DNA of 32,000 bases from Nonlabens ponticola (GCF_003966335.1 NZ_CP034549.1:180001-212000), one strand, 5' to 3'; counted from the first letter of the stretch, positions 1 through 22,241 are shown. Numbers and translations: made by a program. The notes: a model not told the origin generated them from the letters alone.

Positions 1-2088
1 TTGTTCATCTATGATCAAACACGTGGTGCATTCCTGTATGATTCTAAGGAGCGTATAGAACTATCTAATTCCTTAGAACAAATGCTTGAAGAGGATGTTC
101 TTAATAAGGTAGAATTTATTGATGATGATAGAATCGCTTTTGGAACTATTAAGAATGGTGTAATAATATATTCTATAGCGAGTCAAAATATTGAGACTAT
201 TAATAGAAAGTCGGGATTACGGAATAATACTGTATTGGATCTTACAGCCCACAATGGAAATTTATGGCTGGCCTTAGATAATGGTGTAAGTCGCATCGCA
301 GTAGATAGCGCTATTTCTTTTTATACTGATGACACTGGCACATTAGGGACTGTATATGATATTGAATTACTTAATGGACAACTTTATCTAGCCAGCAATA
401 CTGGTGTTTATACTTTCATTGATAACCAATTGACCCTTTTGGAAAATTCTGAAGGTCATTGTTGGGGCATCCATAAATCCAATAGTGAGCTATTCTTTGG
501 CCATAATAAAGGAGCACTGATTCTGGCAAATGGAAAGCTTGAATTAATAGAAGGTTCCTACAGCGGCGTCTACGATTACGTTCCTATCCCGAATTCTCAA
601 GACTTTCTATTATCGACCTATTCTGGAATAGGGTATCTATCTATCGATAACGGCAGCTATGAAGTAACAAAACTCGACGGGCTGGACGTGCCTATTGACA
701 ACATCATTTTTGAGAACGAAAAGCTCCTATGGGCGACAGATAATTTCAAAAATCTATTTAAAATAGAGTTTAACACCAACAATAAGACGCTTGAAAGTGT
801 AGTCTTGATGGAAAGCAAGGAGTTAGCAAAGGAGAAAATGGTTGATATCGTCAAAATTGATGATCTACCTTACTTTGTGATAGGTGGATCATGGTTTACC
901 TACTCGCATGGAAAAAGCAGCTTTCAACCTGCTGAAAAATTTGAAGGTAAATTACTGATTGGTCAAGATGATAGCAGTCTTTGGTTTATGAATGAAGATC
1001 GTTCTAGCATCGTCAAGATAGACCGGCAGTCAGGTGAAGTAACAACACTTTCTAATCAAGAATTTTTCTCAAAACTCGTAGACGGTTACTCAAAAGTTTT
1101 CGCGATTGACGAAAACCGCAGCAGCATCAACCTTAAAGACGGATTTGCAATTATTCACAATGATAAAAGCGGTATCAATGATTATGAAAGCATAATCATC
1201 AAGGAAATAACCGCTAGCGATAAGATAATAGAGCGATCTGAGCCGAATGACCTCATATTGAGTTATGAAGAAGCTAGATCTATAAACTTTAAAATTTATT
1301 CTCCTGGTAATTATGATCATAATTTCACATACCAGCTTGAAGGAGAAATGAGTCAATCTGATAAAATTATGGATGGTAGTTTCATGCTGCGCAATCTCAA
1401 AAGCGGCAATTATATTTTATCTATTGTCGATAGTGGGAACGACCAAATAAGAAAAGAACTGAGCATTGAGGTAATGGCGCCCTGGTATCTAAGTTGGTGG
1501 ATGAAGCTGGGTTATTTACTGTTACTTATAGCATTATTGTTCCTTGCAGGTAGATATCAAAAGATCAAAGCCAATAAAGCTCATAACAAGGCTCAAAAAG
1601 AATTACTACAACAAGCCAAGCAAAAGCTTGAAGCTGTGGAAAAAGAGAACCTAATTAAAGAAGTGGAGTCTCGACAAAAGGAATTGATTAACCGCACCGC
1701 GACGATTGTAAGAAAGAATGAGGCGATCATAACTCTAAGAAATGAACTTAGAAAACTTCAGGAAAGCTCGCCTAATAAGATCAGGACAGACAATATTTTA
1801 AAAAGAACTGGTGAACAGCTGGACAGTAAAAATGACTGGCATTTATTTGAGTCAAAATTCAATTCATTGAATGAGGACTTCTTTAATAATCTATCCAGAA
1901 AGTTTCCAAAATTGACCAGTAAAGATCAAAAGCTATGTGCCTATATCAAAATAGGTCTTACTTCTAAAGAAATTGCTCCGTTGTTGGGAATCACTAAAAG
2001 AAGTGTTGAACTACAACGTTATCGATTACGAAAAAAGCTAAATCTAGATACAGATATTACTTTTCCAGAATTTTTGTCCCAGTTATAA
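1..2088 (+). CDS. Transmembrane one-component sensor/regulator: periplasmic beta-propeller plus Y_Y_Y (triple-tyrosine) domain, one TM helix, coiled coil, C-terminal LuxR-type HTH; 5'-truncated by window edge
   Basis: ORF runs to nt 1 with no credible start. Y_Y_Y-like segment (NFKIYSPGNYDHNFTYQLEG...GNYILSIV). Hydrophobic helix WWMKLGYLLLLIALLFLAG, then a long K/E/Q-rich coiled coil. LuxR/GerE HTH (LTSKEIAPLLGITKRSVELQRYRLRKKL). Lies upstream of and co-directional with susC/susD. Confidence 0.8.
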   Translation: MFIYDQTRGAFLYDSKERIELSNSLEQMLEEDVLNKVEFIDDDRIAFGTIKNGVIIYSIASQNIETINRKSGLRNNTVLDLTAHNGNLWLALDNGVSRIAVDSAISFYTDDTGTLGTVYDIELLNGQLYLASNTGVYTFIDNQLTLLENSEGHCWGIHKSNSELFFGHNKGALILANGKLELIEGSYSGVYDYVPIPNSQDFLLSTYSGIGYLSIDNGSYEVTKLDGLDVPIDNIIFENEKLLWATDNFKNLFKIEFNTNNKTLESVVLMESKELAKEKMVDIVKIDDLPYFVIGGSWFTYSHGKSSFQPAEKFEGKLLIGQDDSSLWFMNEDRSSIVKIDRQSGEVTTLSNQEFFSKLVDGYSKVFAIDENRSSINLKDGFAIIHNDKSGINDYESIIIKEITASDKIIERSEPNDLILSYEEARSINFKIYSPGNYDHNFTYQLEGEMSQSDKIMDGSFMLRNLKSGNYILSIVDSGNDQIRKELSIEVMAPWYLSWWMKLGYLLLLIALLFLAGRYQKIKANKAHNKAQKELLQQAKQKLEAVEKENLIKEVESRQKELINRTATIVRKNEAIITLRNELRKLQESSPNKIRTDNILKRTGEQLDSKNDWHLFESKFNSLNEDFFNNLSRKFPKLTSKDQKLCAYIKIGLTSKEIAPLLGITKRSVELQRYRLRKKLNLDTDITFPEFLSQL

Positions 2089-2249
2089 TACATAATTCGC
2101 AATCAAAACCTATAAAACTACCACATCATCCATACATCAAAATGTTAAAACAGATTTTTACGAAAATTATAGTGGATTGATATACAATGTTTTGTGTAAT
2201 GTATTTTAGTCAGCGAGAATTTCATCTACTACATCTTTAACGATTCTTT

Positions 2250-2257
2250 TAAATTTG
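2250..2257 (+). promoter_or_regulatory. Candidate Bacteroidota -7 promoter box (TAnnTTTG) for the susC operon
   Basis: TAAATTTG matches the TAnnTTTG -7 consensus of Bacteroidota sigma-A promoters and lies about 50 nt upstream of the susC ATG. Single motif match only. Confidence 0.3.
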
Positions 2258-2306
2258 AGTGAGCAGGTCTAACGCCTTAATACTTAAACTTTTATAAGAG
2301 TTTCGC

Positions 2307-5300
2307 ATGAGATTTCAGGTCAAATTAACTACCTCAATCCTTTTCTTTTTATTAACTCAGTTTGTTTTTGCACAAAAAACAATCACTGGAGTAGTAGTTG
2401 ATGAAAGTGATGTTCCAATTTTAGGTGCATCCATTTTCATTAAATCTAAAAATCTAGGGACGCAAACAGGCTTTGATGGCGATTTTTCTATAGAAGCTGA
2501 AATAGGTGATTTAGTTTCGGTCAGTTATATAGGGTTTGAAACTCAAGAATTTACAGTAGATAGTCGAGATGAATATCGGATAATTCTTCCAACTAGTATA
2601 AACTCTCTCGAAGAAATTGTAATTGTTGGATATGGTAAACAGAAGAAAGCTATTCTTACCAGCTCTGTCTCGATAGTAGATGGCGATGAAGTTGCAAAAG
2701 AACCGGTTCTTAATGTGACTCAAGCGCTTCAAGGAAAAGCTGCTGGTGTCAACATCATTGCATCTGATGCTCCAGGACAGGCCTCATCAGTAATTATACG
2801 TGGATTGGGAACTGTTCAAGGTGGTAGAGATCCACTTTATGTTGTTGATGGAGTATTGACGGATAACATCAATAATATCAATTCGGCGGACATAGAATCG
2901 ATCAACGTTTTGAAAGATGCCGCTTCACTCGCCATTTATGGTAATAGAGGTGCCAATGGTGTAATCATAGTTACCACCAAACAAGGAAGGAAAGGTGACA
3001 TGAAAGTAAGCTTTGATGCATACTCAGGCTTTAGAGATATTCTTACTAGGGTTGAGCTAGCCAACGCATCAGAATATGTCATTTATAGTAATGAGGCATT
3101 AAGACGCGATTATCTTACTGATAATGACCCTACAAATGATAATAGCACCGTCGGTTTTATTCCTACCGACCAGCAATTTGATACCGACTGGCTAGACGCC
3201 ATAACGCAAATTGGACTGGTCAACAATTTTAATCTTTCCGCTTCTGGTGGATCAGATATGATCACAGCTTTCTTCAGCGCTAGTTTTAACGATGAACGAG
3301 GTGTTTTGCTTAATGATGAGTTCAATCGATTAACCTTAAGAAGTAATGTAGATTATAAAATCTCTGAAAAACTGAGGTTTTCACATAATGTGAGCTCTCA
3401 ATTAGCAACCGGCACACCGCAAAATTATGCTTTGTTTACTTCGGCATATAAGCAAGCACCTATAATTCCGGTGCGTGATGAGAATGGCAATTACGGTTCT
3501 TCCATCAATATCAATAGCGTGGCAAATCCAGCGGTAGATGCGAGTAATGAATTTAAAGAGGACAAGAATAAGTTTTTCAAGATTCAAGGCGCCTTCAAGA
3601 TTGATTATGATGTTCTCGATGATTTGACTTTTACATCTAGATTTTCCATTGAGACAGAGTATGGTAGGTTTTATTCATTTAGGGACAGATTAGGTAACTT
3701 CCTTGCACAAAATCCATTCAATACACCAAGTAGTTTTGAAGGTGATGCTGAAAATCCAGCAAACACGAGACTGACAGTCACACACACAAATACTTATAGA
3801 TGGTTTCTTGATAATTACTTTACCTATGACAAAACATTCAATGATGTTCATGGTATCAATGCCACGCTAGGTATTACGTCAGAAGAAAGTGGCAGTGAAT
3901 TCTTATCTGCAACTAGAAATAATGTTCCCTTAGACACTAACTTAAATTTCAATCTAAATACAGGAGATGAAGACGAGACGCAACTTAATTCGGGTGCGCT
4001 TAGTGTTAGGGATCGATTGTATTCGTACATCGCTCGACTCAACTATGACTATGACAACAAGTATCTTTTTGGAGGTTCTTTCAGGAGAGATGGATCAAGC
4101 AAATTTCAAAAAGGCCAACAATTTGGAAATTTCTTTGCAGTCAGCGCAGGTTGGGTGATTACAGAAGAGAGTTTCATGGACGATAGTGTATTCGACGTAT
4201 TAAAGTTGAGAGCTAGTTATGGTGAATTGGGAAATCAAAATGTTCCGCTCAACGTTTTAAACGCAACGACTGGAGCAGGTGGTTTTTACGCCTTTGGACA
4301 GAACCAACTGCTACAGCAAGGAATTACCATTACAGGTACAATACAGGAAGATCTCACATGGGAGACTACTGAAGAGTACAATTTCGGAGTAGAATTTACA
4401 CTGCTAGATTACCGTCTTTCAGGTGAGCTTGATGTATATCAAAGACTCAACACTAATGCCATTTTACAAATAGAGCTGCCCGACATCATCGGGTTCGATC
4501 CTTTTAATGCTAGCGTAGGGCAAATTCAAAATCGCGGAATTGAGCTTGCGGTAAATTGGAACGATGACATCACAGATGATTTTAAATACTCAATAGGAAT
4601 CAATGCTTCCTACAATGAGAACGAAATTACCGAAGTAACAAATCCTTTTTTCTTGGAGCAATTAGGTGGTTTCATCAACAATGGACAGTACACAAAAAGG
4701 ATTGCGGTAGGCCAGCCGTTGGGTAGTTTCTATTTATATGATGTAGCAGGTATTGATGACAATGGCGACTTGGTTTACAAAGACTTAAACGAGGATGGTG
4801 TTATTGACGAGAGTGACAGAGCGTTTTTCGGGTCTTACCTACCAAAGTTTTTCGGCGGAGTGAATCTTGGTACTCAATACAAACAGTTTGATCTAACAGT
4901 TGACACTTATTTTAATGTAGGTAATAAGGTTTACAATGGTAAAAAGGCCCAACGCTTCGGTAATGAAAATATTGAAGCTGTAGATTTTAATAGTCGATAC
5001 ACTACTGGTCGACCTAGTAACACAACACCTAGGGCATTTAATAATGTTCCTCTCTCATCTACCTATTATTTGGAGGATGGTGATTTTCTACGAATTAACA
5101 ATATAACATTAGGCTATACTTTGCCATTAAAAGAAAACTCAATTTTTGATTCTTTCAGGGTTTATGCTACAGCAAAAAACCCATTTATCTTTCAAAAATT
5201 CTCAGGATTCACTCCTGAGCTTCCTGGAGCACCGCTAGGTAACGCCGGAATTGAGCTAGACGCATTTCCAACTCTTAGATCATTCTATATAGGCTTAAAT

Positions 5301-5312
5301 ACATCTTTTTAA
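2307..5312 (+). CDS. susC: SusC/RagA-family TonB-dependent outer-membrane transporter
   Basis: 1001 aa. Signal peptide, N-terminal carboxypeptidase-regulatory-like domain (ITGVVVDESDVPILGASIF...GDFSI), plug region (IVIVGYGKQKK...NVLKDAASLAIYGNRGANGVIIVTTKQG), long beta-barrel ending in a terminal Phe (LNTSF). Followed 12 bp later by susD. Confidence 0.93.
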   Translation: MRFQVKLTTSILFFLLTQFVFAQKTITGVVVDESDVPILGASIFIKSKNLGTQTGFDGDFSIEAEIGDLVSVSYIGFETQEFTVDSRDEYRIILPTSINSLEEIVIVGYGKQKKAILTSSVSIVDGDEVAKEPVLNVTQALQGKAAGVNIIASDAPGQASSVIIRGLGTVQGGRDPLYVVDGVLTDNINNINSADIESINVLKDAASLAIYGNRGANGVIIVTTKQGRKGDMKVSFDAYSGFRDILTRVELANASEYVIYSNEALRRDYLTDNDPTNDNSTVGFIPTDQQFDTDWLDAITQIGLVNNFNLSASGGSDMITAFFSASFNDERGVLLNDEFNRLTLRSNVDYKISEKLRFSHNVSSQLATGTPQNYALFTSAYKQAPIIPVRDENGNYGSSININSVANPAVDASNEFKEDKNKFFKIQGAFKIDYDVLDDLTFTSRFSIETEYGRFYSFRDRLGNFLAQNPFNTPSSFEGDAENPANTRLTVTHTNTYRWFLDNYFTYDKTFNDVHGINATLGITSEESGSEFLSATRNNVPLDTNLNFNLNTGDEDETQLNSGALSVRDRLYSYIARLNYDYDNKYLFGGSFRRDGSSKFQKGQQFGNFFAVSAGWVITEESFMDDSVFDVLKLRASYGELGNQNVPLNVLNATTGAGGFYAFGQNQLLQQGITITGTIQEDLTWETTEEYNFGVEFTLLDYRLSGELDVYQRLNTNAILQIELPDIIGFDPFNASVGQIQNRGIELAVNWNDDITDDFKYSIGINASYNENEITEVTNPFFLEQLGGFINNGQYTKRIAVGQPLGSFYLYDVAGIDDNGDLVYKDLNEDGVIDESDRAFFGSYLPKFFGGVNLGTQYKQFDLTVDTYFNVGNKVYNGKKAQRFGNENIEAVDFNSRYTTGRPSNTTPRAFNNVPLSSTYYLEDGDFLRINNITLGYTLPLKENSIFDSFRVYATAKNPFIFQKFSGFTPELPGAPLGNAGIELDAFPTLRSFYIGLNTSF

Positions 5313-5324
5313 AATAGTCATGCT

Positions 5325-6764
5325 ATGAAAACAACGTTTAAAAAATTAAAAAGGGTCTTTTTATCATTATTAATATGCACCTTCTTACTTCTTTCCTGTT
5401 CTGAAGATTTTATTGACGTCGACTCAAATCAGGAAACCGAAGAAGCTCTAACCGCTGAAAGAGCTCCAGAACTGGTCAATGCAGTTTACAACAGCTTTCT
5501 TCGATGGGAAGTGAGCTCATTTGCATGGACTGGTATATCAAGTATTGCATCGGATGATGCTGATAAAGGCAGCATACCAAGTGATACTGGTGCAGATAAA
5601 AGTTTATTGGATGCGCTTGAAATAACACCTACAATTATATCAGTCGCTGAGGTATGGAGTGGTCACTATGATGGTATTCAAAGAGCAAATCAAGCTATCT
5701 CTAGAATCTCGCAATTTGAAATGGATGAAGATCTACAAAACAGGTTGTTAGGTGAGGCTAGATTCCTAAGAGCGCTCCTGTATTTCCGATTGGTTCAGGT
5801 TTATGGTGGCGTTCCTTTAATTACTGATATCACATCGGTTGAGGATATCAATTCAGATGTATTATCAAGAAAAACCAAAGAAGAATGCTATGAGTTCATA
5901 GAAAGTGATTTGATGTTTGCAATTGATGCGCTTCCTTTAAAAAGTGAATATCCTCCATCAGAGCTCGGTAGGGCGACCAAAGGTGCTGCCCAAACGCTGC
6001 TCGCGAAAGTAAGTATGTATCAATCCAAATGGGAAGAGGTAATTACACTGACAGATGACGTAATCAACTCTTCAGAATATGCTCTTACTCCAAACTATGA
6101 AGATATATGGAAAGATAGTTTTGAAAACAATGAAGAATCCATATTTGAAATTCAGGCTAGAGGTAATGAACCTGCTGCTGGAATCGATAAGTATAGCACT
6201 ATCCAGGGCGTTCGTGGTGAAAGTGGTTGGGGTTGGGGCTTCAATACACCATCGCAAGATCTTGCGGACGCCTATGAGGATGATGATCTTAGACAAGATG
6301 CAACATTCATACTAGCTGGAGAAACATTGTTTGACGGTAGAGAAATAAGTCCTAACGTACCTAACCCTAGGTACAATCAAAAAGCGTACTCCAGTATTCT
6401 AACTGAATCAGAACAGACTGGTAAAAACGTAAGGATACTCAGGTATGCAGAAGTACTTCTGATGAATGCTGAGGCAAAGTCTATAATAGGCGGTGATGTA
6501 GCAACACCTCTGAATCTAGTAAGACAGCGTGCTGGTTTAGATGACTCTGATGATCTAAGCACCGAGGCTGTATGGAAAGAGAGACGCCTAGAGCTAGCAT
6601 TTGAACATGATAGATATTTTGACCTAGTAAGACAAGGTCGCGCAGAAGAAGTTTTGAATTCAAAAGGAATTCGATTCATAGCTGGAAAACACGAGGTATT
6701 TCCTATACCGCAAGAGCAAATTGATCTAAGTGGTGGAGCGTTGGTTCAGAATCCTAATTACTAA
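5325..6764 (+). CDS. susD: SusD/RagB-family outer-membrane lipoprotein (glycan binding)
   Basis: 479 aa. Lipoprotein signal (LLLSCSEDF). SusD-like motifs (ARFLRALLYFRLVQVYGGVPL, RYAEVLLMNAEA, ERRLELAFEHDRYFDLVR, FPIPQ near the C-terminus). Immediately downstream of susC. Confidence 0.9.
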   Translation: MKTTFKKLKRVFLSLLICTFLLLSCSEDFIDVDSNQETEEALTAERAPELVNAVYNSFLRWEVSSFAWTGISSIASDDADKGSIPSDTGADKSLLDALEITPTIISVAEVWSGHYDGIQRANQAISRISQFEMDEDLQNRLLGEARFLRALLYFRLVQVYGGVPLITDITSVEDINSDVLSRKTKEECYEFIESDLMFAIDALPLKSEYPPSELGRATKGAAQTLLAKVSMYQSKWEEVITLTDDVINSSEYALTPNYEDIWKDSFENNEESIFEIQARGNEPAAGIDKYSTIQGVRGESGWGWGFNTPSQDLADAYEDDDLRQDATFILAGETLFDGREISPNVPNPRYNQKAYSSILTESEQTGKNVRILRYAEVLLMNAEAKSIIGGDVATPLNLVRQRAGLDDSDDLSTEAVWKERRLELAFEHDRYFDLVRQGRAEEVLNSKGIRFIAGKHEVFPIPQEQIDLSGGALVQNPNY

Positions 6765-6774
6765 GAAAGAGAAA

Positions 6775-8142
6775 ATGAGAGAGTACTCAAAAATTATAAA
6801 GACAATGAAATTCACAACGCTTGCAGTAGTCATTTTAGTTGTAACAAATTGTACCAATGAAGACTTTACTGCGCCGCCACCGGATGTTGGATTTGTAGAA
6901 GAACCTGCGGTAGAAAGAATATCGACTGAAGAATTACTGGATATTACCCAAGAAAGAACATTCAATTACTTCTGGGATTTTGCTGAAGAAAACAGTGGAC
7001 TTGCACGAGAAACATCAAGAGATGATGCAATAGGTGGCGATGGAAACCGAGTGGTCACCACTGGTGGTTCTGGATTTGGTATTGCAGCCTTTCCTGCAGC
7101 CGTAGAACGTGGATGGATCACTAGAGCTGAAGCCATTGAAAGGCTAGACAAAATACTCAACTTCTTAGAAAGCTGTGAAACTTATCATGGAGCATTCTCG
7201 CATTGGTATTTAGGCGATACGGGCGTCACGAGAGACTTCAGTGAATTGGACGACGGTGCAGACATCGTGGAGACAGCGTTTCTACTTCAAGGTTTGCTGA
7301 TTAATAAACAATACTTTGATTCGGATGATGATGCTGAAGCCGACATCAGAAGCAGAATTTCAACCATTTATGATAATGTAGAATGGAGTTGGTTTGAAAG
7401 AGGTCAAAATTCAATGACCTGGCACTGGTCACCTGAAAACGAATTTGCTATTGACTTACAAATTCAAGGTTGGAATGAATCGTTGATGGTTTATGTTCTA
7501 GCGGCTGGATCCAATACGTTCCCTATAACCAAAGAGACTTATGACAATGGCTGGTCTAGAAATGGACAAATGGTTAATGGAAATACTTATGTAGGAACTA
7601 GACTGCCTTTAGGTGTAGACTTTGGAGGTCCACTTTTCTATGCACATTATTCTTTCATAGGTCTGGATCCCAGAAATCTGTCGGATCAGTACGCTAATTA
7701 TATGGAGCAAAACACAGCTCACTCACTCATAAATTACGAATACTGCCGCAACAATCCCAATGAATATTTAGGATATGGTGGTGATAGTTGGGGCTTGACT
7801 GCCAGCAATGATTTTAACGGTTATGCAGTTCATGATCCATTGAACGACATAGGTGTCATAACGCCTACTGCTGCACTTTCTTCTTTCCCATACACACCTG
7901 AGGAATCACAAAAAGCGTTGGAATATTTCTATTACAATCTCAACGATAGACTTTGGGGAGAATACGGTTTTTACGATGCTTTTAGCGAAGAGTTCAATTG
8001 GTATGATGACAGTTACCTAGCAATTGATCAAGGTCCAATCGTAGGTATGATTGAGAATTACAGAACTCAACTATTGTGGAATTTATTCATGCAAGACGAG
8101 CAAGTACAGAATGGACTTGATCTTTTAGGATTCACTTATTAA
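6775..8142 (+). CDS. Glucoamylase-like (alpha/alpha)6 family lipoprotein (PF10091 / GH144-like, candidate endo-beta-glucanase)
   Basis: ORF opens at GTG 6730 inside susD. ATG 6775 (or ATG 6805, MKFTTLAVVILVVTNC lipobox) is the more plausible start. Motifs recalled from the 'putative glucoamylase'/GH144 family: TFNYFWDFAEENSGLARE, GGSGFGIAAFPAAVERGWITRAEA, HGAFSHWY. Family assignment is from memory and not searched. Confidence 0.65.
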   Translation: MREYSKIIKTMKFTTLAVVILVVTNCTNEDFTAPPPDVGFVEEPAVERISTEELLDITQERTFNYFWDFAEENSGLARETSRDDAIGGDGNRVVTTGGSGFGIAAFPAAVERGWITRAEAIERLDKILNFLESCETYHGAFSHWYLGDTGVTRDFSELDDGADIVETAFLLQGLLINKQYFDSDDDAEADIRSRISTIYDNVEWSWFERGQNSMTWHWSPENEFAIDLQIQGWNESLMVYVLAAGSNTFPITKETYDNGWSRNGQMVNGNTYVGTRLPLGVDFGGPLFYAHYSFIGLDPRNLSDQYANYMEQNTAHSLINYEYCRNNPNEYLGYGGDSWGLTASNDFNGYAVHDPLNDIGVITPTAALSSFPYTPEESQKALEYFYYNLNDRLWGEYGFYDAFSEEFNWYDDSYLAIDQGPIVGMIENYRTQLLWNLFMQDEQVQNGLDLLGFTY

Positions 8143-8148
8143 GAAACG

Positions 8149-10413: not shown

Positions 10414-10419
10414 ATCATT

Positions 10420-13239
10420 ATGAAACAATTTTTACTTTTTGTTTTAATTCTTTCTGTGTTCACGGGCGCAGCGCAATGCGTTGATCCAGACATCACAGAT
10501 TTTGAATGTGAGAATCCATCACATCCTATCACTGGAGCATTGACCAGCGTGCTCAATCCGTTTCCGCACGATATTAATAGAAGTGAAAACGTAGGTAAGT
10601 ATATAGATAACGGTCAGGCAGGATTTGACGCATTGGTCGTTGATTATGGGTCACCCATTGACTTGTCGGTAAATCCAGTTTTGAAACTTAAATTCTATTC
10701 CACCAATTCAGTTCAGATTTTAGCGAAACTAGAAGGTGGCACGCAACAAGAGCTATTTTCAGACTTCAGTCAGGTAAACACGTGGCAAGAATTTTCTTTT
10801 GATTTTAGCGCCTCGCAAGGAAACGGTAACACACGAGTGGTATTTTTTGTCAATCCTGGAGTTGAAAACGGATCACCTGCAGACGTTTATTATTTGGATG
10901 ACATTCGATTTGACAGCACCGTACTCACGCCTTGTGAAGAACCTTTTATAACCAACTTTGAATGCGCACCATTCTCCAACACTATAAATGGAGCATTGGT
11001 AACTGTAGGCAATTCAGTTTCTGGTGGAACGAATACCAGCCCTAACATAGGTCAATATACTGATGACGGTACACAAGGATTTGATGCTCTTGTGATTGAT
11101 TATGGAGCTCCTATCGATTTATCTGTGAATAGCATTTTTAAGCTCAAATTCTATTCGCCAAGTTCCGTACAAATTTTAGCCAAACTAGAAGGCGGCACGG
11201 TACAGGAAATATTCTCAGACTTCAGTCAAGTAAACACTTGGGAAGAATTCACTTTTGATTTTAGCGCATCTGTTGGTCAAGGTAACACTCGTTTAGTATT
11301 GTTCTTCAACCCATTTGTTGAATCAGGAACACCCAATGATATTTACTTTATCGATGATCTTCAATTTGGAACCCTTGAAAGAACAGTTTATAGCTATAAG
11401 AACGATACCACAGGCTGGACGCCCAACATTCCTAACGATGTAATTGATCCATCAAGTGCCATAGACAACATTGTCATTCAGGCTGGTGCAACGCAAACAA
11501 CAGGTGATTTACTCGCTGCAAATGTGACTGTAGCGTCAGGTGCAATGTTAGATGCTCAAGGGTTGAATGTAACTTCTACTTTAGATAGTCAAGGTGTGAC
11601 TAATGTTTTTGGAACGCTAACACCCAACGCTTCACAGATTACTTCAAATGGTACGCTGACCTTAAAAAGTGATGAGAATGGAACTGCAACGGTAGCTGAT
11701 GCTACCAATGCAACTTTTAACGGCGCGATAGCAGTTGAGCGATACATTCCAGCTTCCAACAGATCTTACAGATTGGTTTCTACCGCTGTTGAAAACGCTG
11801 GGCCTATCAGTTCAAATTGGCAATTGAATACGCACATTACAGGAAATGGTGGTGCTAGCAATGGTTTTGATGAAACAGGAACTAACAATCCATCCATGTT
11901 TACCGTCAACGAGCAAGCTGCACCAGCAAACTATGAAGCTATCACTACCACGGCGACAAATCTAGAACATGGGACAGGATACCTACTGTTTGTACGTGGC
12001 GATCGTTCTGTAGATCTTACAGATAATGAGGCAGCGGCTACAGCAACTACCTTATCAAGTGCAGGAACGTTATTTAGAGGAAATCTAGTACTAGGAAACA
12101 CACAGCTTAACACAGGCGATTTTGAGGCAGGTGGCAATGGATCATCCTTGATTGCCAACCCTTACCAGGCACCAGTCAATATGGAGCAGGTTTTAAATAC
12201 AGCTACAGAAATCAATCAGGAATTCATTCATGTTTATGATCCTACCTTGGGAGATCGCGGTGCTTTTGTAACCGTAGGTTTTGGCGCGGCTACAGATGGT
12301 ACAGATGACATCACCAACTTTTCTCTAGGAGCAAATGCTGGTAATGACGCATCGACTACACAGGCTTCAAGATTCCTACAGCCAGGTAGCGCTGTTTTCA
12401 TCAATACGCTAGATCCTGGAACTGATGGAACTGCAAATCCATCGCTCACATTCAGCGAGGTAGATAAGGCGATCAACAGCCCAGTTTCCATTCCTTTTGA
12501 GACGCCAGATGCTGTAGATGTCAATTCAAGTAATGCATTAGTGAGCATCAATCTCTTTGACACAGCAGCTTTTGCAAACAACGAGAGTCCTAGAGATGCA
12601 CTTGTTGTGAGATTTTCAGACCAGTATAGCAATGCCCTTGAGACAACAGATGCATTGAAAGCCACCAATCTTGATGAAAACATGGCCAGTATGGCAGATG
12701 GCCAACTCTTTAGTATTCAAAGTCGAGCGTTGCCTGTCGATGAGGAAATCATTGATTTGTCCATGACCAATTATACGATGACTGACTATACCATGAAAAT
12801 CAGCATCAATGGACTGGATGATGTCAATGCCTATCTGGTTGACAACTTTACGAACACCTCAACGCTTCTTGAGAACGACTCGGTTACCCTTGTAGAGTTC
12901 TCTGTGGACTCTTCAAATGACTCTAGTAGCAGTGAGGATCGTTTTGATTTAGCTTTCGCGAAAAGCACACTATCAAACACAGATGATCAAGCGACCAGCT
13001 TTAAACTATTCCCTAATCCTGTTAACAATGGGGTTGTTAATGTTGAACTGAGCCAGGTTACTGCTGGTCCAGCGCAGGTACACATTTACAACTCGTTAGG
13101 TCAAAATGTACAAGAAATCAAGCTAGCCGAAATAGCTGGTGTACAAACTCTAGATGTATCTAACCTAAGTCAAGGAATATACATCATGGAGATTATCCAA
13201 GACGGTACATCGACCTCGCAAAAAGTGATCATTCAATAA
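10420..13239 (+). CDS. T9SS-secreted protein: two N-terminal copies of an unassigned ~146-aa Cys-capped module, a ~540-aa Thr/Asn/Ala-rich region and a C-terminal T9SS sorting domain
   Basis: Signal peptide. Modules at nt 10477-10914 and 10933-11370. T9SS CTD at nt 13000-13236 (FKLFPNPVNNGVVNVEL...GIYIMEIIQDGTSTSQKVIIQ). Starts 6 bp after the GH3 stop. Confidence 0.8.
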   Translation: MKQFLLFVLILSVFTGAAQCVDPDITDFECENPSHPITGALTSVLNPFPHDINRSENVGKYIDNGQAGFDALVVDYGSPIDLSVNPVLKLKFYSTNSVQILAKLEGGTQQELFSDFSQVNTWQEFSFDFSASQGNGNTRVVFFVNPGVENGSPADVYYLDDIRFDSTVLTPCEEPFITNFECAPFSNTINGALVTVGNSVSGGTNTSPNIGQYTDDGTQGFDALVIDYGAPIDLSVNSIFKLKFYSPSSVQILAKLEGGTVQEIFSDFSQVNTWEEFTFDFSASVGQGNTRLVLFFNPFVESGTPNDIYFIDDLQFGTLERTVYSYKNDTTGWTPNIPNDVIDPSSAIDNIVIQAGATQTTGDLLAANVTVASGAMLDAQGLNVTSTLDSQGVTNVFGTLTPNASQITSNGTLTLKSDENGTATVADATNATFNGAIAVERYIPASNRSYRLVSTAVENAGPISSNWQLNTHITGNGGASNGFDETGTNNPSMFTVNEQAAPANYEAITTTATNLEHGTGYLLFVRGDRSVDLTDNEAAATATTLSSAGTLFRGNLVLGNTQLNTGDFEAGGNGSSLIANPYQAPVNMEQVLNTATEINQEFIHVYDPTLGDRGAFVTVGFGAATDGTDDITNFSLGANAGNDASTTQASRFLQPGSAVFINTLDPGTDGTANPSLTFSEVDKAINSPVSIPFETPDAVDVNSSNALVSINLFDTAAFANNESPRDALVVRFSDQYSNALETTDALKATNLDENMASMADGQLFSIQSRALPVDEEIIDLSMTNYTMTDYTMKISINGLDDVNAYLVDNFTNTSTLLENDSVTLVEFSVDSSNDSSSSEDRFDLAFAKSTLSNTDDQATSFKLFPNPVNNGVVNVELSQVTAGPAQVHIYNSLGQNVQEIKLAEIAGVQTLDVSNLSQGIYIMEIIQDGTSTSQKVIIQ
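12952..12966. repeat. Imperfect copy of the iterated palindrome (GCTTTCGCGAAAAGC, one extra A)
   Basis: Read directly. Lies inside CDS 10420-13239 and encodes AFAKS. Confidence 0.5.
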
Positions 13240-13256
13240 TCAAAAAACTGAACAAC

Positions 13257-13469
13257 ATGAATAGCAATAAATATTTACAACGATTTGTACTGGTGGCGGT
13301 AATCCTGTTCACCATGACCTTGATTGATGGTGATCTATATGCTCAAATAGGCGTACCAGAAGATGGTGATGTTGAAGACGTGGAAATGGCACCAATAGAT
13401 AGTCTGATATGGATTGCCATGGGCGCTGGAGCATTCATAGGCTACAAAAAACTCAAAAAAGATAACTGA
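13257..13469 (+). CDS. Hypothetical 70-aa mini-protein: N-terminal signal/TM, acidic linker, C-terminal TM helix plus basic tail
   Basis: ORF only. FVLVAVILFTMTLI...LYAQ, then VPEDGDVEDVEMAPID, then SLIWIAMGAGAFIGY-KKLKKDN. Fills the gap between two module genes (17 bp and 62 bp spacers). Coding status is unproven. Confidence 0.45.
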   Translation: MNSNKYLQRFVLVAVILFTMTLIDGDLYAQIGVPEDGDVEDVEMAPIDSLIWIAMGAGAFIGYKKLKKDN

Positions 13470-13531
13470 TTGCTAGCAGTATACAACTCAAGCAACCCCA
13501 AAACACAAACGATTACCTAAATCTACATATC

Positions 13532-14746
13532 ATGAAAAAAATTCTACTCTTATCCTTATGTGCAATATCCTATTTAGGGTATGGACAATGTAATGAACCA
13601 CTTATCACAGACTTTGAATGTGGTGAACCATCTAATCCTATCACGGGTGCGCTGGTTACCGTGGCAAATCCATTTCCTGGTGGCATCAACACCAGTGAAA
13701 ACGTGGGTGAATACACAGATGATGGAACACAAGGTTTTGACAACTTTAGTATTGAATACGGCGAGCCTATTGATCTATCGACAAACAGTGTCTTAACGCT
13801 TAAGCTCTACTCGCCTACTTCGGTTCAAATACTGGCAAAGCTTGAAGGTGGTGGTGGACCAGAAATCTTTTCTGACTTCAGTCAAGTCAACGAGTGGCAG
13901 GAATTCTCTTTTGACTTCAGCGCTTTTGCAGATGGCGGCAACACAAGAGTTGTGGTTTTTGTAAACCCAGCAGTTTCCAGTGGAACAACAACTGACATCT
14001 ATTATGTGGATGATATAGGTTTTGAAGAACCAGAAGAAGAAGCAGTGCCATGTGAAGGTCCTGTGATTACAGATTTTGAATGCTCTGCACCATCGCAGCC
14101 TATTACAGGTGCAATTGTGACTGTTGAGAATCCATTCCAAGAAGGAATCAACACCAGTGAAAACGTAGGACGATACACTGATGATGGAACCAATGGTTTT
14201 GACGCACTAGTCGTAGATTATGGGACAGAAATTGACTTATCTACAAATCCTATTTTCAGTGTGAAGCTTTACTCAACCAGTTCCGTTCAAATTCTTGCAA
14301 AACTTGAAGGTGGAACAGCGCAGGAAATCTACTCTGATTTCAGTGAGGTAAACCAGTGGCAGGAGTTCACATTTGACTTCTCAGATTCACAAGGTAATGG
14401 AAATACACGCCTAGCTTTATTTGTCAATCCAGCGGTAACTGATGGTACAACTACAGATGTTTACTTTCTAGACGATTTGAGTTTTGAGAGCGCTACTGCT
14501 TCCATCGATGAAAATTTCTTGAACAGCATCAAACTATATCCTAACCCAGCTGCTGACATCCTGAATATTTCTTCAGTTGACACTATAGAAAGCTATCAGA
14601 TACTAGACGTTTCAGGTAAGACCATCATGAGCAAAAATGAGAATATCTCTGCTGCGATTGATGTGAATAATCTGACTACAGGTATCTATTTTATCAGACT
14701 TAATTCATCGTCTTCTAAAGCGGTAATCAAGTTTGTAAAACAATAA
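13532..14746 (+). CDS. T9SS-secreted protein made of two copies of the Cys-capped module plus a T9SS C-terminal sorting domain
   Basis: Signal peptide. Modules at nt 13589-14026 and 14051-14488. CTD at about nt 14519-14743 (IKLYPNPAADILNISS...GIYFIRLNSSSSKAVIKFVKQ). Confidence 0.85.
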   Translation: MKKILLLSLCAISYLGYGQCNEPLITDFECGEPSNPITGALVTVANPFPGGINTSENVGEYTDDGTQGFDNFSIEYGEPIDLSTNSVLTLKLYSPTSVQILAKLEGGGGPEIFSDFSQVNEWQEFSFDFSAFADGGNTRVVVFVNPAVSSGTTTDIYYVDDIGFEEPEEEAVPCEGPVITDFECSAPSQPITGAIVTVENPFQEGINTSENVGRYTDDGTNGFDALVVDYGTEIDLSTNPIFSVKLYSTSSVQILAKLEGGTAQEIYSDFSEVNQWQEFTFDFSDSQGNGNTRLALFVNPAVTDGTTTDVYFLDDLSFESATASIDENFLNSIKLYPNPAADILNISSVDTIESYQILDVSGKTIMSKNENISAAIDVNNLTTGIYFIRLNSSSSKAVIKFVKQ

Positions 14747-14764
14747 TGATTAAATAAATTGAAG

Positions 14765-16792
14765 ATGAAAACTCCGTTATTCAAATATTCTCTGCTGGTT
14801 CTAGTAGTAACCTTACTGCATTCTTGTGAACGGGAATTAGAGAGATATGAATTGTTGACTTTTGAAAGATGTGAAACTGAAGATGTTGTTCCAGACCCGT
14901 TTGTGGTAACAGATTTTGAGTGTCAATCAAATGTCAATATCAATGGAGTTGAAGTCATCAGAAATCCCAGTGAGACTGGCGATAACCTATCAAGATTTGT
15001 AGGAGAGTATACCGATGGTGCCAGCGCCACAGATGCACTGGTTATCGAGTTTGACGATGACCTGGATTTATCTACCAACGCTACACTCTCGTTTGCCGTA
15101 AAAACAGATGTTACAGGAACGCTAGAAATTCAATTATTGGGCGATCCAGATGGAACGGTTTCTTATGAAGTCATCATCGCAGGTAACGAGCGCTGGATTG
15201 AGTATGAAGTAGACCTAGTTGATGATCGTGATAAAAGCTTTGATCAAATCAATTTTGTCTTCAATAGCGGTATTGAAAACAACGGTAATGATATTTACTT
15301 GATCGATAATATCAAATTTGAACTTACTATCGATCCTTGCGAGGATGTGGTGGCAGATCTATCCATCATCAGCGATTTTGAATGTCAACAGAATTACTTT
15401 TTGGGCGCAGACCCAGAACAAACCAGTGTTGAACCAGTCGACAATCCCTTTATTGGTGGTATCAATCAAAGCAGTGATGTAGGTAGATACGTGGACAACG
15501 GTACCGAGGCTTTTGACAACTTGCAAATCAATTTTGACGACGCGATTGATCTATCAGAAAAACCATTGTTTACCATGAAGGTTTATGCGCCTACCCCAGG
15601 AATACTTACAGTAAAACTGGAAGGCGGTTCAGAAGCTGTGGAGCAATCAGCAACGGTTACTACCGCAAATCAATGGGTAGAATACTCATTCAATTTTGCA
15701 GATGCCGTCGACAATGACAACGACACCATGATCATCTTCTTCAATGCAGGCAGCATGGATGGAAATGAGGCTGAAGTCTACTTCATCGACGACCTACAAT
15801 TTGAAGAATTTGTAGATCCATGTGAGAGCGTTGACGAGGATCTATCCATCATTTCAGATTTTGAATGCCAGCAGAATTATACCTTGGGTGTGAATCCTGC
15901 CTTGATCAGCACCATTGAAAACTTTGATCCTGACGACGTGAACATGAGTGATCTTATAGGTCAATATTCAGACGATGGCACACAAGGCTTTGATAATTTA
16001 CTCATTGACTTTGAGGACGACATCGACCTGTCAGAGCGTCCCGTGTTTTCCATTAAGGTTTATTCTACACAACAGGCGCCACTCGTGGCCAAAGTAGAAG
16101 GTGGCGACACACCTCTAGAAATTGCCAGAGAAATTACGGCTGTGAACGAATGGGTAGAATACACCTTTGACTTCTCGCCTGTGGCAGATCAAGGTAATGA
16201 CCAGCTGATCCTTTTCTTCAACTTCGGTCAGGAAGATGGTACCACCACAGACCTATATTATATTGATGATCTGCGATTTGTGGAAAATCCATGTGGAGTC
16301 ATTGATGAAGACTGTGAAAATGTCACACCAGACTTGACGATCATCAGCGATTTCAATTGCCAGCAAAACTATCATCTAGGTGCCGTACCTACTGTCGAGG
16401 ATGCGCCAGTCGTGCCTAATCCTGACGTGAGCTGTGAAAACAGAAGTGCCAATGTAGGCCGATACACTGATAATGGTACAGATCCATTTGACAATCTATT
16501 TATAGATCTTGAAGGACCGTTTGATCTTACCAACAACAGCACGCTACGATTAAAGATATTGTCTGATAATCCTGCGCCAGTTCCTGTTCTTGCAAAGCTA
16601 GAAGGTGGCACGCCGCTAGAAGTTTTTGCAGACGTTACGGTCACTGGCGAGTGGACAGAGATCAGCTTTGACTTCAGCGCTGCAATAGGTGCTGGAAACG
16701 ACGCACTTGTCCTATTTGTTAACGCTGGTGAGACCAACACGTCAACCGCAGACATCTACTACCTGGACGACATCAGGTTTGAAGCACCATAA
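14765..16792 (+). CDS. Lipoprotein made of four diverged copies of the Cys-capped module (candidate surface glycan-binding protein)
   Basis: ATG at 14765 (the track starts at TTG 14759). Lipobox LLHSC. Modules at about nt 14870-15322, 15338-15805, 15821-16282 and 16292-16783. No T9SS CTD; the protein ends in YYLDDIRFEAP. Confidence 0.85.
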   Translation: MKTPLFKYSLLVLVVTLLHSCERELERYELLTFERCETEDVVPDPFVVTDFECQSNVNINGVEVIRNPSETGDNLSRFVGEYTDGASATDALVIEFDDDLDLSTNATLSFAVKTDVTGTLEIQLLGDPDGTVSYEVIIAGNERWIEYEVDLVDDRDKSFDQINFVFNSGIENNGNDIYLIDNIKFELTIDPCEDVVADLSIISDFECQQNYFLGADPEQTSVEPVDNPFIGGINQSSDVGRYVDNGTEAFDNLQINFDDAIDLSEKPLFTMKVYAPTPGILTVKLEGGSEAVEQSATVTTANQWVEYSFNFADAVDNDNDTMIIFFNAGSMDGNEAEVYFIDDLQFEEFVDPCESVDEDLSIISDFECQQNYTLGVNPALISTIENFDPDDVNMSDLIGQYSDDGTQGFDNLLIDFEDDIDLSERPVFSIKVYSTQQAPLVAKVEGGDTPLEIAREITAVNEWVEYTFDFSPVADQGNDQLILFFNFGQEDGTTTDLYYIDDLRFVENPCGVIDEDCENVTPDLTIISDFNCQQNYHLGAVPTVEDAPVVPNPDVSCENRSANVGRYTDNGTDPFDNLFIDLEGPFDLTNNSTLRLKILSDNPAPVPVLAKLEGGTPLEVFADVTVTGEWTEISFDFSAAIGAGNDALVLFVNAGETNTSTADIYYLDDIRFEAP

Positions 16793-16800
16793 ATCAATGA

Positions 16801-16837
16801 AAAGTCGCCTAGCAATGCTCTAGGCGACTTTTTTTAT
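16801..16837 (+). terminator. Rho-independent terminator closing the susC-to-16792 operon
   Basis: AAAGTCGCCTAG-caatgct-CTAGGCGACTTT followed by a T-run, 9 bp after the stop codon. Confidence 0.85.
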
Positions 16838-16871
16838 CCAGTCATTAAATTGAAGGAAGGTGGTTATGATT

Positions 16872-16889
16872 ACGCTTTCGCGAAAGCGT
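16872..16889. repeat. Iterated palindrome, 18-bp perfect copy (ACGCTTTCGCGAAAGCGT)
   Basis: Read directly. Intergenic, between the PUL terminator and the GH13 start. Confidence 0.9.
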
Positions 16890-16958
16890 GATTACCACAT
16901 ACCACCTTACATATTGATTAATTTAGTATCTTTTAATTCAATACCAAATAACATTAAA

Positions 16959-18341
16959 ATGAATAAAGTAAGCCGTTGGGCAGCACTTGTTGTGGTTACT
17001 TTTTTGTGCGCATGCCAATCAAGTGATGAAGGAGTGGATGATGACTCCAGCATTCCTGTGGATCCTATTGACGATACAGCATACTCGCAATACGGCACTC
17101 CGTTTGGTCAAATTCCCGATACGGAGGACGTAGTAATGTATGAAGCTAATTTGAGAGCTATGAGTGCTGGTGGCGATTTACGTGGTGTTATCAATCGATT
17201 GGATCATATTGAGGACCTGGGTATCAATGTGATATGGCTCATGCCCATCCATCCACAGGGACAAGAAAGATCTGTCGGGTCGCCTTATGCCATAAGGGAT
17301 TATAAAGAAGTAAGCAATGAGTATGGAGATCTAGAAGATTTAAGGGAATTAACTGATGCTGCTCACTCTCTTGGGATAGCCGTAATTATGGACTGGGTCG
17401 CCAATCATACAGCTTGGGACAACGAGTGGATCGAGAATAAGGACTGGTACACTCAAGATGCAGCTGGTAACATAGTCATTCCATCTGGTACCAATTGGCA
17501 GGACGTGGCAGACTTGAATTTTGACAATCAGGAAATGAGGTCAGCGATGATAGATGCTATGAAATACTGGATCCTAGAAGCAAATATCGATGGCTATCGC
17601 TGCGACTATGCAGATGGCGTCCCAGCAGACTTCTGGGAAGATGCATGGGATGAGCTTGATGCGATTCCTAATAGAAAACTCGTGAAGCTAGCCGAAGGAA
17701 ATCGCGAAGATCATCTACAGTCAGGATTTGATTTAAACTTTGGATTTGAATTCTACGGTGCCATGATCAATGCATTTGAAGGTCAACCGGCAACCAGTAT
17801 CATGGAGAAAAGTGAAGAAGAATATGCTACCGTTCCCGATGGCAAACAAGTGTTGCGTTATACTACAAACCATGATGAGTCAGCATTTGCGGCGACGCCT
17901 ATAGAATTTTTTGGTGGTAAACAAGGAGCGCTCGCTGCTTCAACCATCACTATTTTTATGAATGGCGTGCCACTAATATATAGTAGCCAGGAAGTAGGGC
18001 GATCATCCAACGTGCCATTTTTCTCAAATTCTAGGATCGACTTTGATGCTAATCCAGATATGCTGGAATCTTACCAAAAAATGATTGCGTTTTACAACAG
18101 CTCTGCAAGTGCGAGAAAAGGAAGTACACAAGATTTCTCAAATGATGATGTTGTAAGTTTTAGAAAAACACTCAACAATGACGACGTATTAATAATAGCA
18201 AACATAAGAAACCGTGAAGTCTCATATGCTATACCTTCTAGCTTACAAAATACTGAGTGGAGTAACATCACTACCTCTAATACGGTGAGCCTGACTGGGT
18301 CCATCGATCTACAGCCGTATGAGTTTCTAATACTTGATTAA
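16959..18341 (+). CDS. GH13 alpha-amylase-family lipoprotein
   Basis: ATG 16959 gives MNKVSRWAALVVVTFLCACQ (lipobox). GH13 conserved regions: VIMDWVANHT, GYRCDYADG, KLAEG, YTTNHDE. The ORF-track start at GTG 16860 is a spurious upstream extension that runs through the palindrome. Confidence 0.88.
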   Translation: MNKVSRWAALVVVTFLCACQSSDEGVDDDSSIPVDPIDDTAYSQYGTPFGQIPDTEDVVMYEANLRAMSAGGDLRGVINRLDHIEDLGINVIWLMPIHPQGQERSVGSPYAIRDYKEVSNEYGDLEDLRELTDAAHSLGIAVIMDWVANHTAWDNEWIENKDWYTQDAAGNIVIPSGTNWQDVADLNFDNQEMRSAMIDAMKYWILEANIDGYRCDYADGVPADFWEDAWDELDAIPNRKLVKLAEGNREDHLQSGFDLNFGFEFYGAMINAFEGQPATSIMEKSEEEYATVPDGKQVLRYTTNHDESAFAATPIEFFGGKQGALAASTITIFMNGVPLIYSSQEVGRSSNVPFFSNSRIDFDANPDMLESYQKMIAFYNSSASARKGSTQDFSNDDVVSFRKTLNNDDVLIIANIRNREVSYAIPSSLQNTEWSNITTSNTVSLTGSIDLQPYEFLILD

Positions 18342-18362
18342 GTACTGTTATGATTTAATAAA

Positions 18363-18388
18363 AAAGCCTCTTCAATTGAAGAGGCTTT
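18363..18388. terminator. Hairpin terminator, copy A, flanked by an A-run and a T-run (bidirectional)
   Basis: AAAGCCTCTTC-aatt-GAAGAGGCTTT, 22 bp after the GH13 stop. Near-identical to the hairpin at 18728-18755. Confidence 0.7.
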
Positions 18389-18460
18389 GTGTGGATGACA
18401 GGAACCTGCCTGTCGTGCCTCTGGCAAGCAGGTCGAACATGCACACCTTGCGGCACTAGA
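18389..18460 (-). pseudogene. Degenerate duplicate of the 3' half of tRNA-Leu (anticodon-stem 3' strand to acceptor end) carrying a 28-nt insertion in the T-loop
   Basis: Aligns to 18755-18799 with two substitutions (18393, 18439) and an insertion at 18405-18432. There is no 5' half, so it cannot fold as a tRNA. Confidence 0.8.
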
Positions 18461-18710: not shown

Positions 18711-18727
18711 AATGTAATAATAACAAA

Positions 18728-18755
18728 AAAAGCCTCTTCAAATGAAGAGGCTTTT
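18728..18755 (-). terminator. Rho-independent terminator of tRNA-Leu (hairpin copy B)
   Basis: AAAAGCCTCTTC-aaat-GAAGAGGCTTTT. On the minus strand it is followed by a T7 run, and it starts 2 nt after the tRNA 3' end. Confidence 0.8.
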
Positions 18756-18756
18756 G

Positions 18757-22239: not shown

Positions 22240-22241
22240 CA

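Follow-up and report, generated by a model that had tools for sequence, protein, structure and literature searches.

A GH144 and GH3 polysaccharide utilization locus of Nonlabens ponticola with a predicted beta-1,2-glucan substrate and repeated modules related to a laminarin-binding family

The stretch of 32,000 nucleotides (nt) from Nonlabens ponticola that we analyze here (GCF_003966335.1, NZ_CP034549.1:180001-212000; called the window below) begins with a polysaccharide utilization locus (PUL). According to the open reading frame (ORF) map, all genes from position 1 to 16792 are on the plus strand and encode a regulator, SusC, SusD, a glycoside hydrolase (GH) of family GH144, a GH3, and three non-catalytic proteins, which agrees with the gene order and strand given in a first-pass annotation of this DNA. 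An adjacent susC/susD pair with co-directional carbohydrate-active enzyme genes, the arrangement by which a Bacteroidota PUL is recognized, is thus present. We read the locus as a marine Flavobacteriaceae PUL that is probably dedicated to beta-1,2-glucan, meaning linear or cyclic bacterial glucans and sophoro-oligosaccharides, and give that reading a probability of about 0.8 from homology and gene context. It is favored because the GH144 is conserved, the GH3 has kin with the expected activity, the modules of the non-catalytic proteins are in one case fused to a GH144, Polaribacter counterparts include a phosphorylase for 1,2-beta-oligoglucan (SOGP), and the core of the locus is repeated in most of 80 related loci. 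The first-pass annotation had proposed beta-1,2-glucan rather than laminarin, and the GH144 residues, the relatives of the GH3, the absence of laminarin enzymes, and the Polaribacter SOGP all support that choice.

The protein encoded downstream of susD had been called GH144-like from its motifs. Its membership of GH144 is firm, every feature of the family that sequence can test being present. Pfam matches it to PF10091 with E = 3e-72, and the search against all Protein Data Bank (PDB) sequences aligns its residues 64-468 to residues 24-435 of CpSGL (PDB ID: 5GZH; E = 2.4e-132) with 49% identity over 405 residues. CpSGL, from Chitinophaga pinensis, is the founding GH144 endo-beta-1,2-glucanase. 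In the parsed alignment, 7 of 7 key CpSGL residues are conserved: D135, D139, E142, E211, F268, Y330, and D400, found at ORF positions 174, 178, 181, 250, 303, 365, and 433, respectively. The general acid is E211 and the general base most plausibly E142, activity needs D135 and D139, and the beta-1,2-glucanase clan is defined by E211, F268, and Y330 (Nakajima et al. 2025, PMC12102758). Other PDB matches are three structural-genomics entries named putative glucoamylases, the 712-residue chain 5Z06 (BDI_3064), and XCC2207. The window protein has one catalytic domain and is without the approximately 280-residue N-terminal region of 5Z06; since that chain is presumably the enzyme of Parabacteroides distasonis with exo activity, the window protein is more likely to act in an endo mode. 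The N-terminus reads MREYSKIIKTMKFTTLAVVILVVTNC-TNEDF, and the enzyme is probably a surface lipoprotein. To our knowledge, all characterized members of GH144 act on beta-1,2-glucosidic chains. Part of that record is given in PMC12102758 and PMC11228985.

The next gene starts 6 bp after the GH144 and encodes the BglX-type GH3 that had been expected there. Pfam finds the three GH3 domains PF00933, PF01915, and PF14310, and the NCBIfam BglX model NF011678 scores 844.7 bits against a cut-off of 666. The PDB matches are 3U48, a beta-glucosidase from a compost metagenome (E = 3e-236), 5XXL (E = 5e-212), and 4ZOA (E = 2e-173). We take 5XXL to be BT_3567 of Bacteroides thetaiotaomicron and 4ZOA to be Lin1840, and papers from the Nakajima laboratory reportedly describe both as beta-1,2-specific enzymes acting on sophorose and sophoro-oligosaccharides. 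By its overall similarity to these two, the window GH3 fits a beta-1,2-glucan locus. The sequence contains FVVTDY, a motif that in GH3 presumably holds the nucleophile. Because its cleavable signal peptide has no Cys, the protein is suggested to be periplasmic.

Pfam scans of the window ORFs of at least 100 residues find no GH16, GH17, or GH30 domain, so the laminarin-defining enzymes are absent from the window as had been claimed, and GH149 and GH158 are absent from the same ORFs. GH16_3, GH17, GH30, GH149, and GH158 are likewise not found in the flanks of the nearest relatives, where no other glycoside hydrolase flanks the locus. A GH94 SOGP gene is absent from the window and turns up only in the counterpart loci of Polaribacter. 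The three module genes within 10420-16792 have no catalytic-domain match, and hence it holds that the locus has no degradative enzymes besides GH144 and GH3, with the reservation that the middle of the 939-residue protein, about 540 residues, matches nothing.

To place the locus among its relatives we use 80 loci obtained by scanning one genome per species with the window GH144 protein, with their ORFs labelled by the window proteins and a profile of the modules. The window GH144 is most similar to those of a Nonlabens metagenome-assembled genome (82% identity), Aurantibacter aestuarii (81%), Nonlabens xiamenensis (79%), and a Tamlana (78%). The core regulator-SusC-SusD-GH144(-GH144)-GH3 recurs in most of the 80. 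What we call type I, with 23 of the 80 loci, has regulator-SusC-SusD-GH144-GH3 and one to three module genes, the order varying in a few, and occurs for example in Nonlabens, Aurantibacter, Tamlana, Dokdonia, Aquimarina, Polaribacter, Snuella, Gaetbulibacter, Formosa, Lutibacter, and Algibacter; identity to the window is mostly 54-78% for SusC and 55-80% for SusD. Type II, the other 57, is mostly regulator-SusC-SusD-GH144-GH144(-GH144)-GH3 with no modules, as in Christiangramia, Salegentibacter, Salinimicrobium, and Gillisia, and is mostly about 35% identical in SusC and about 25% in SusD.

The type I loci of Polaribacter haliotis and P. ponticola continue with a major facilitator superfamily (MFS) transporter and a 1119-residue GH94 protein, which has the Pfam domains SOGP_N, SOGP_2nd, and SOGP_4th and matches PDB ID: 5H3Z over its full length with E = 1e-185. 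Since this SOGP is in loci with the same gene set, it gives a pathway link to beta-1,2-glucan that is independent of GH144. On the 3' side of the SOGP in P. haliotis (locus L081, 18357-20798), there is encoded a large protein that combines two F5/8 type C (CBM32-like) domains with a weak match to GDE_C or a GH15-like six-hairpin fold, which may be a further beta-1,2-glucan-related enzyme.

The three genes between the GH3 and the terminator were not described in the first-pass annotation. Their products, of 939, 404, and 677 residues, contain 2, 2, and 4 copies, respectively, of a module of about 150 residues. The eight copies are 28-67% identical in pairs and have 19 invariant columns, and most have an N-terminal C...DFEC cysteine pair. 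Searched against the PDB, the eight-copy profile finds one convincing chain, 8QX6, with E = 4.8e-12. The AlphaFold2 model of module 1 of the 404-residue protein, built on a 74-sequence alignment, is a beta-sandwich with a predicted local distance difference test (pLDDT) score of 96.1; the whole 404-residue protein folded without an alignment has a pLDDT of 53.6. Foldseek ranks 8QX6 first with a template modeling (TM) score of 0.73, probability 1.00, and 23-25% identity, and the PDB title returned by the fold search is "Novel laminarin-binding CBM X584", where CBM stands for carbohydrate-binding module. The Foldseek matches after that are CBM61, an uncharacterized module of a GH50 (4BQ2), CBM8, CBM4, and CBM11. 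The module family is large. Exhaustive profile search among 1.84 billion proteins returns, at E ≤ 0.001, 2561 cluster representatives, and single proteins have as many as 16 copies, where a word-indexed search had given 29 short proteins.

The modules of the window belong to a particular part of that family. Modules within the operons score 120-208 bits and have the Cys pair in 116 of 124 cases, while modules elsewhere in the same loci score 43-54 bits and are without the pair. By these scores and cysteines across loci, the Cys-pair modules are a distinct branch of the CBM X584 family. Module genes are co-conserved with GH144 in 23 of the 80 loci, the most constant partner being a lipoprotein-sized protein with three to five modules. 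The branch accompanies GH144, a statement that applies to loci selected by GH144 or by the modules and does not extend to its occurrence elsewhere. A metagenomic protein of 1286 residues (P0059/P0178; locus L084, 8906-12766, ENA ERZ23498707) joins the two in one chain, with a GH144 47% identical to that of the window, four modules, and a sorting domain of the type IX secretion system (T9SS); two of its modules, which share 40-44% identity with the window modules, have the Cys pair. The locus of the fusion reads SusC-SusD-...-GH144-...-GH144-GH3, an 887-residue neighbor consists of five modules and a sorting domain, and of the two further GH144 genes, one has a T9SS sorting domain. We have not found it stated in the literature that GH144 has the Cys-pair branch of a laminarin-CBM family as a conserved partner, one that is sometimes fused to it.

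T9SS type A sorting domains also end the 939-residue and 404-residue proteins of the window, with PF18962 scoring about 55 bits in each (E = 9e-15 and E = 7e-15, respectively) and TIGR04183 scoring 48-50 bits, and both proteins pass the curated threshold for type A cargo. The 677-residue protein has the lipoprotein signal ...LLHSC-ERELE and a weak Pfam match to CBM_4_9, and is predicted to be a surface glycan-binding protein. In the 939-residue protein, residues from about 320 to 860 (window 11380-13000, plus strand) are the T/N/G/S-rich middle of about 540 residues that has zero matches in Pfam, NCBIfam, and the PDB. It is kept only in the close relatives L001, L006, and L008; in Polaribacter unrelated sequence replaces it, and the counterpart there aligns over modules and sorting domain only. 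We set aside a hidden catalytic domain in this middle on the grounds that it has no database match and is not aligned in Polaribacter. We favor a variable stalk (unproven), though it may be an undescribed domain. Directly 3' of the 939-residue gene, there is a 70-residue ORF that starts with a hydrophobic, signal-like helix and ends in a PID...TM...KKLKK tail, conserved at 43-47% identity in the same position in L001, L006, and L008. As a PID-CTERM protein it was rejected, with 17.1 bits against a cut-off of 26 (E = 0.004).

The nearest described relative of these proteins is Cf-SGBP of the Christiangramia forsetii laminarin PUL, which is likewise a non-catalytic multi-module surface protein encoded after susD. 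Its module, named CBMxx, is present in four repeats and has 4BQ2 as its only remote structural relative, in a preprint in which GH144 is unmentioned (Zuhlke et al., bioRxiv 10.1101/2023.09.07.556657). Going by the entry title and that preprint, the 8QX6 chain is apparently this Cf-SGBP module. Window modules share its beta-sandwich fold and have detectable homology with it, but at only 23-25% identity; they differ by an additional stretch at the N-terminus, in which two cysteines are conserved (C..DFEC), and by the motifs LEGG, FFN.G, and YY.DD. They are in GH144 loci and Cf-SGBP modules are in GH16/GH17/GH30 loci; two of the three window proteins are T9SS cargo, while the Cf-SGBP type is a lipoprotein. 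The only CBM work on beta-1,2 linkages that we found in the literature searched is on CBM92, a beta-trefoil that binds non-reducing glucose ends, including those of sophorose, with sub-millimolar to millimolar affinity (PMC11039641). CBM92 has another fold and another binding mode than the window modules. We regard it as an even bet that the eight modules, as members of the Cys-pair X584 branch, would have the beta-1,2-glucan chain as ligand and would be shown multivalently on T9SS and lipoprotein scaffolds, scavenging periplasmic or cyclic glucans from dead Proteobacteria.

Upstream of susC, the first-pass annotation had placed a transmembrane Y_Y_Y/LuxR regulator. A single hydrophobic transmembrane helix near residues 497-520, a charged linker, and a GerE helix-turn-helix at 638-682 bear out the transmembrane and LuxR parts of that description; the Y_Y_Y domain is not detected by Pfam in the 695 residues present in the window, and neither are HisKA, HATPase, or receiver domains. 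Full-length homologs have 910-931 residues, and some 220-235 N-terminal residues of the window copy fall outside the window. Three homologs were scanned, finding a weak beta-propeller and GerE in two (L002 and L012) and a sub-threshold Y_Y_Y (E = 0.0027) only in the 917-residue L002. A regulator is upstream of susC in most related loci. From its architecture, and from what a preprint states for GH144 PULs, we consider the window regulator to be probably BguR-type. BguR activates the laminarin PUL of Formosa agariphila, and its homologs are consistently associated with GH144 PULs, whose regulators form another clade than the laminarin PUL regulators do (Bartosik et al. 2026, bioRxiv 10.64898/2026.01.10.698779). 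The BguR PULs and the window have in common one transmembrane helix, a linker, GerE, the absence of a phosphorelay, and a position directly 5' of susC, and differ in that the BguR prototype controls a laminarin PUL while the window locus has GH144; the N-terminal part of the presumed periplasmic sensor falls beyond the window start.

BguR PUL spacers carry a conserved motif, and so does the 218-nt spacer between regulator and susC here, the likeness being in the presence of a motif. The family consensus is ACTAC(A/T)(A/T)CA-TT-ACTACATCA, and this 20-mer, allowing up to 5 mismatches, occurs in 57 of 63 regulator-susC spacers, compared with under 1% of shuffles, at a median position 36 nt past the regulator stop. 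The spaced pair CATCA-N6-CATCA is found 2 times in the window against 0.13 expected. The regulator would be expected to bind at the tandem repeats. The promoter is placed at a candidate -7 box by likeness to the Bacteroidota consensus TAnnTTTG (Table 1). In type II loci (L012-L073), approximately 50-135 nt 5' of susC, many have a second conserved element, GTAGTAG-N-GTGTACTACAACGTTTGCG, which contains the ACTAC repeat in inverted form; at the matching place in the window there is only one CTACTACATC.

Put together, these parts suggest the following route. Glucan would be captured at the surface by the eight beta-sandwich CBM copies on one four-module lipoprotein and two two-module T9SS proteins, the lipoprotein GH144 would cut it as an endo-beta-1,2-glucanase to sophoro-oligosaccharides, SusC and SusD would import these, and the periplasmic BglX-type GH3 would trim them to glucose. 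The regulator would activate the susC promoter via the tandem ACTACATCA repeats. Gene order, family memberships, intact catalytic residues, the fold of the modules, the DNA repeat, and the recurrence in other genomes are observed; binding by the regulator, the cell locations, and the order of the steps are predicted along with the substrate.

Several points weigh against a beta-1,2-glucan substrate. The call rests wholly on homology and gene context, and we found no biochemical, growth, or expression data in the literature for any marine GH144 PUL. BglX enzymes of GH3 are broad in specificity, and both the founding member of the CBM family (8QX6) and the founding regulator, BguR of Formosa agariphila, are laminarin-specific. 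The window has neither SOGP nor sulfatase genes, and because of this the downstream metabolism and any decoration of the substrate are not visible in it.

It is conceivable, if improbable, that the true substrate is an unknown and possibly decorated marine glycan containing beta-1,2-linked glucose, and not plain bacterial glucan. In marine GH144 PULs a sulfatase is often present in addition, and a sulfated marine polymer of unknown nature has been proposed as their target (Lapebie et al. 2019, PMC6499787); the unusually heavy CBM load of this locus type and the unexplained, variable 540-residue region of the 939-residue protein also point that way. However, crude signature and Pfam scans find no sulfatase, esterase, or second glycosidase family in the window or in the 23 type I loci, and a set of two enzymes fits an undecorated homopolymer. 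A sulfated substrate in particular was set aside, the crude scan having the sulfatase signature in 0 of the 23 type I loci and in 2 of the 57 type II loci within 10 kb.

If the GH144 were divergent and the CBMs and the regulator acted like their laminarin-specific founders, the target would be laminarin or a different beta-1,3/1,6-glucan, which we think quite improbable. The modules do resemble the laminarin-binding CBM X584, by sequence (E = 4.8e-12) as well as by fold (TM 0.73), but with identity to 8QX6 of only 23-25% and with a Cys-pair branch of their own. The BguR prototype does control a laminarin PUL, but the regulators of GH144 PULs form a separate clade, and while GH3 is common in laminarin PULs (all in bioRxiv 10.64898/2026.01.10.698779), GH16, GH17, GH30, GH149, and GH158 are all absent here. 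The residues for CpSGL activity are intact and the SOGP gene is in Polaribacter loci of the same gene set, both of which argue for beta-1,2-glucan over laminarin.

The features of the locus are collected in Table 1.

Table 1. Position of the predicted features of the Nonlabens ponticola locus and of the adjoining GH13 gene, counted from the first nucleotide of the window.
Feature	Position	Strand	Evidence or remark
Regulator ORF, start cut by the window edge	1..2088	+	695 residues present
Candidate operator, tandem 11-nt direct repeat ACCACATCAT-CCATACATCA	2120..2139	+	4 mismatches to consensus
Third repeat copy CTACTACATC	2226..2235	+	exact match; 5' of the -7 box candidate
Bacteroidota-type -7 box candidate TAAATTTG	2250-2257	+	putative promoter
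SusC-like TonB-dependent transporter	2307..5312	+	TIGR04056 808 bits, cut-off 368; Plug and CarboxypepD_reg
SusD-like outer-membrane glycan-binding lipoprotein	5325..6764	+	PF07980, PF14322
GH144, predicted endo-beta-1,2-glucanase	6775..8142	+	PF10091 and PDB 5GZH
GH3 BglX-type beta-glucosidase	8149..10413	+	three GH3 Pfam domains, NCBIfam BglX
939-residue T9SS-sorted protein, two CBM modules	10420..13239	+	PF18962, module profile
Modules of the 939-residue protein	10474-10917, 10930-11373	+	
70-residue ORF, weak PID-CTERM likeness	13257..13469	+	17.1 bits, below cut-off
404-residue T9SS-sorted protein, two CBM modules	13532..14746	+	PF18962, module profile
Modules of the 404-residue protein	13586-14029, 14048-14491	+	
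677-residue lipoprotein, four CBM modules	14759..16792	+	module profile, signal sequence
Modules of the 677-residue protein	14885-15328, 15335-15808, 15818-16285, 16295-16789	+	
Intrinsic terminator closing the operon	16800..16838	+	13-pair hairpin, then TTTTTTT
GH13 alpha-amylase-type lipoprotein, neighbor gene	16959..18341	+	PF00128

The first-pass annotation had put the gaps between the genes at 6-62 bp, which is correct when the 70-residue ORF is counted and fails when it is not, as one gap is then 292 nt. The strong terminator it gave at 16801-16837 is recovered one nucleotide wider on either side, with the hairpin core GTCGCCTAG-loop-CTAGGCGAC and its 13 pairs and T7, and it is the top-ranking terminator-like site within 1-19000.

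Downstream of the terminator there is encoded a GH13, matched by PF00128 (E = 3.5e-39) and PDB ID: 4GKL (E = 1e-48), with its likely true start at ATG 16959, a lipoprotein signal, and a 166-nt spacer behind the terminator. This gene had been attached to the locus as an odd alpha/beta-glucan pairing. We judge the GH13 to be outside the locus because the terminator precedes it and the related loci show no GH13 match, and most likely the two just lie side by side. No GH13 match is present in the fetched sequence of any of the 80 loci, a result informative mainly for the shorter loci since those with three CBM genes barely reach the position; an M20 match is also in none of the 80, with the fetched flank of the three-CBM-gene loci again barely reaching its position. 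A joint alpha/beta-glucan system that recycles bacterial storage and periplasmic glucans is highly improbable, for although the GH13 is adjacent, on the same strand, and a lipoprotein, and recycling of bacterial alpha-glucan by marine Flavobacteriia is described (PMC11093988), the strong terminator and spacer, the lack of a match in related loci, and the GIY-YIG-like ORF and tRNA-Leu gene that change the context 3' of the GH13 all speak against it.

In that 3' region, two near-identical hairpins (AAAGCCTCTTCA..TGAAGAGGCTTT) at 18363-18388 and 18728-18755 flank an 84-residue minus-strand ORF, 18456-18710, which resembles a GIY-YIG-type protein by eye only, and the tRNA-Leu gene follows directly at 18756-18838 on the minus strand. 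Further on, 21748-25019 on the plus strand encodes a BlaI-type repressor (PF03965) and then a 925-residue BlaR1/M56-type sensor with a long unannotated C-terminal part, followed by a DUF4407 protein at 25095-26195; these genes are unrelated to the PUL.

Among known systems, the GH144 loci (the CpSGL cluster of Chitinophaga pinensis, the BT_3567 region of Bacteroides thetaiotaomicron, and the "GH144 PULs" of PULDB and Lapebie 2019) have, like the window, SusC/SusD followed by GH144 and a BglX-type GH3. The window locus differs from them in having no sulfatase, three extra CBM-repeat proteins of which two are T9SS-sorted, and a BguR-type regulator; it has one GH144, whereas Christiangramia, Salegentibacter, and similar loci have two or three. 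The SOGP pathway of Listeria innocua (Lin1839-1841) and Lachnoclostridium phytofermentans deals with the same substrate class, and the Polaribacter counterpart of the window PUL has the SOGP. The window is without the GH94, ABC transporter, and MFS genes of that pathway, and breakdown here appears to be purely hydrolytic.

The beta-1,2-glucan reading, right as we hold it to be, is already in print. GH144 beta-1,2-glucan PULs are among the abundant PUL types, with marine versions that add a sulfatase (Lapebie et al. 2019, PMC6499787); a cluster of GH3, two GH144, and susCD, described in Maribacter, is shared by many flavobacteria of marine origin (Wolter et al. 2021, PMC8072126); such PULs have been annotated as targeting beta-1,2-glucan in work on the Mariana Trench (PMC10405439); and the association with BguR homologs is described in bioRxiv 10.64898/2026.01.10.698779. 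Because this basic interpretation is published, our finding mainly confirms existing annotation practice. As marine flavobacteria go, the locus itself is ordinary, and its module branch offers a reasonable lead that can be tested.

Many Gram-negative bacteria make beta-1,2-glucans, in periplasmic or cyclic form, and the marine fate of these glucans is essentially unstudied, while PULs with GH144 belong to the commoner types and have a wide distribution among marine Flavobacteriia. The window gives a clean, minimal case, in which a single regulator and transporter pair are joined by two enzymes and a terminator, and this minimal gene set recommends it for work by heterologous expression or genetics. 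If the modules were to act in scavenging as proposed, they would be the first dedicated beta-1,2-glucan-binding CBMs in the literature searched, and the locus would be a beta-glucan counterpart to the bacterial necromass loop described for alpha-glucans. Binding of beta-1,2-glucan would also add to a CBM family for which laminarin is the only target known to date, and the modules could then serve both as a probe by which beta-1,2-glucan is detected in seawater and as a marker that in annotation separates beta-1,2-glucan loci from laminarin loci.

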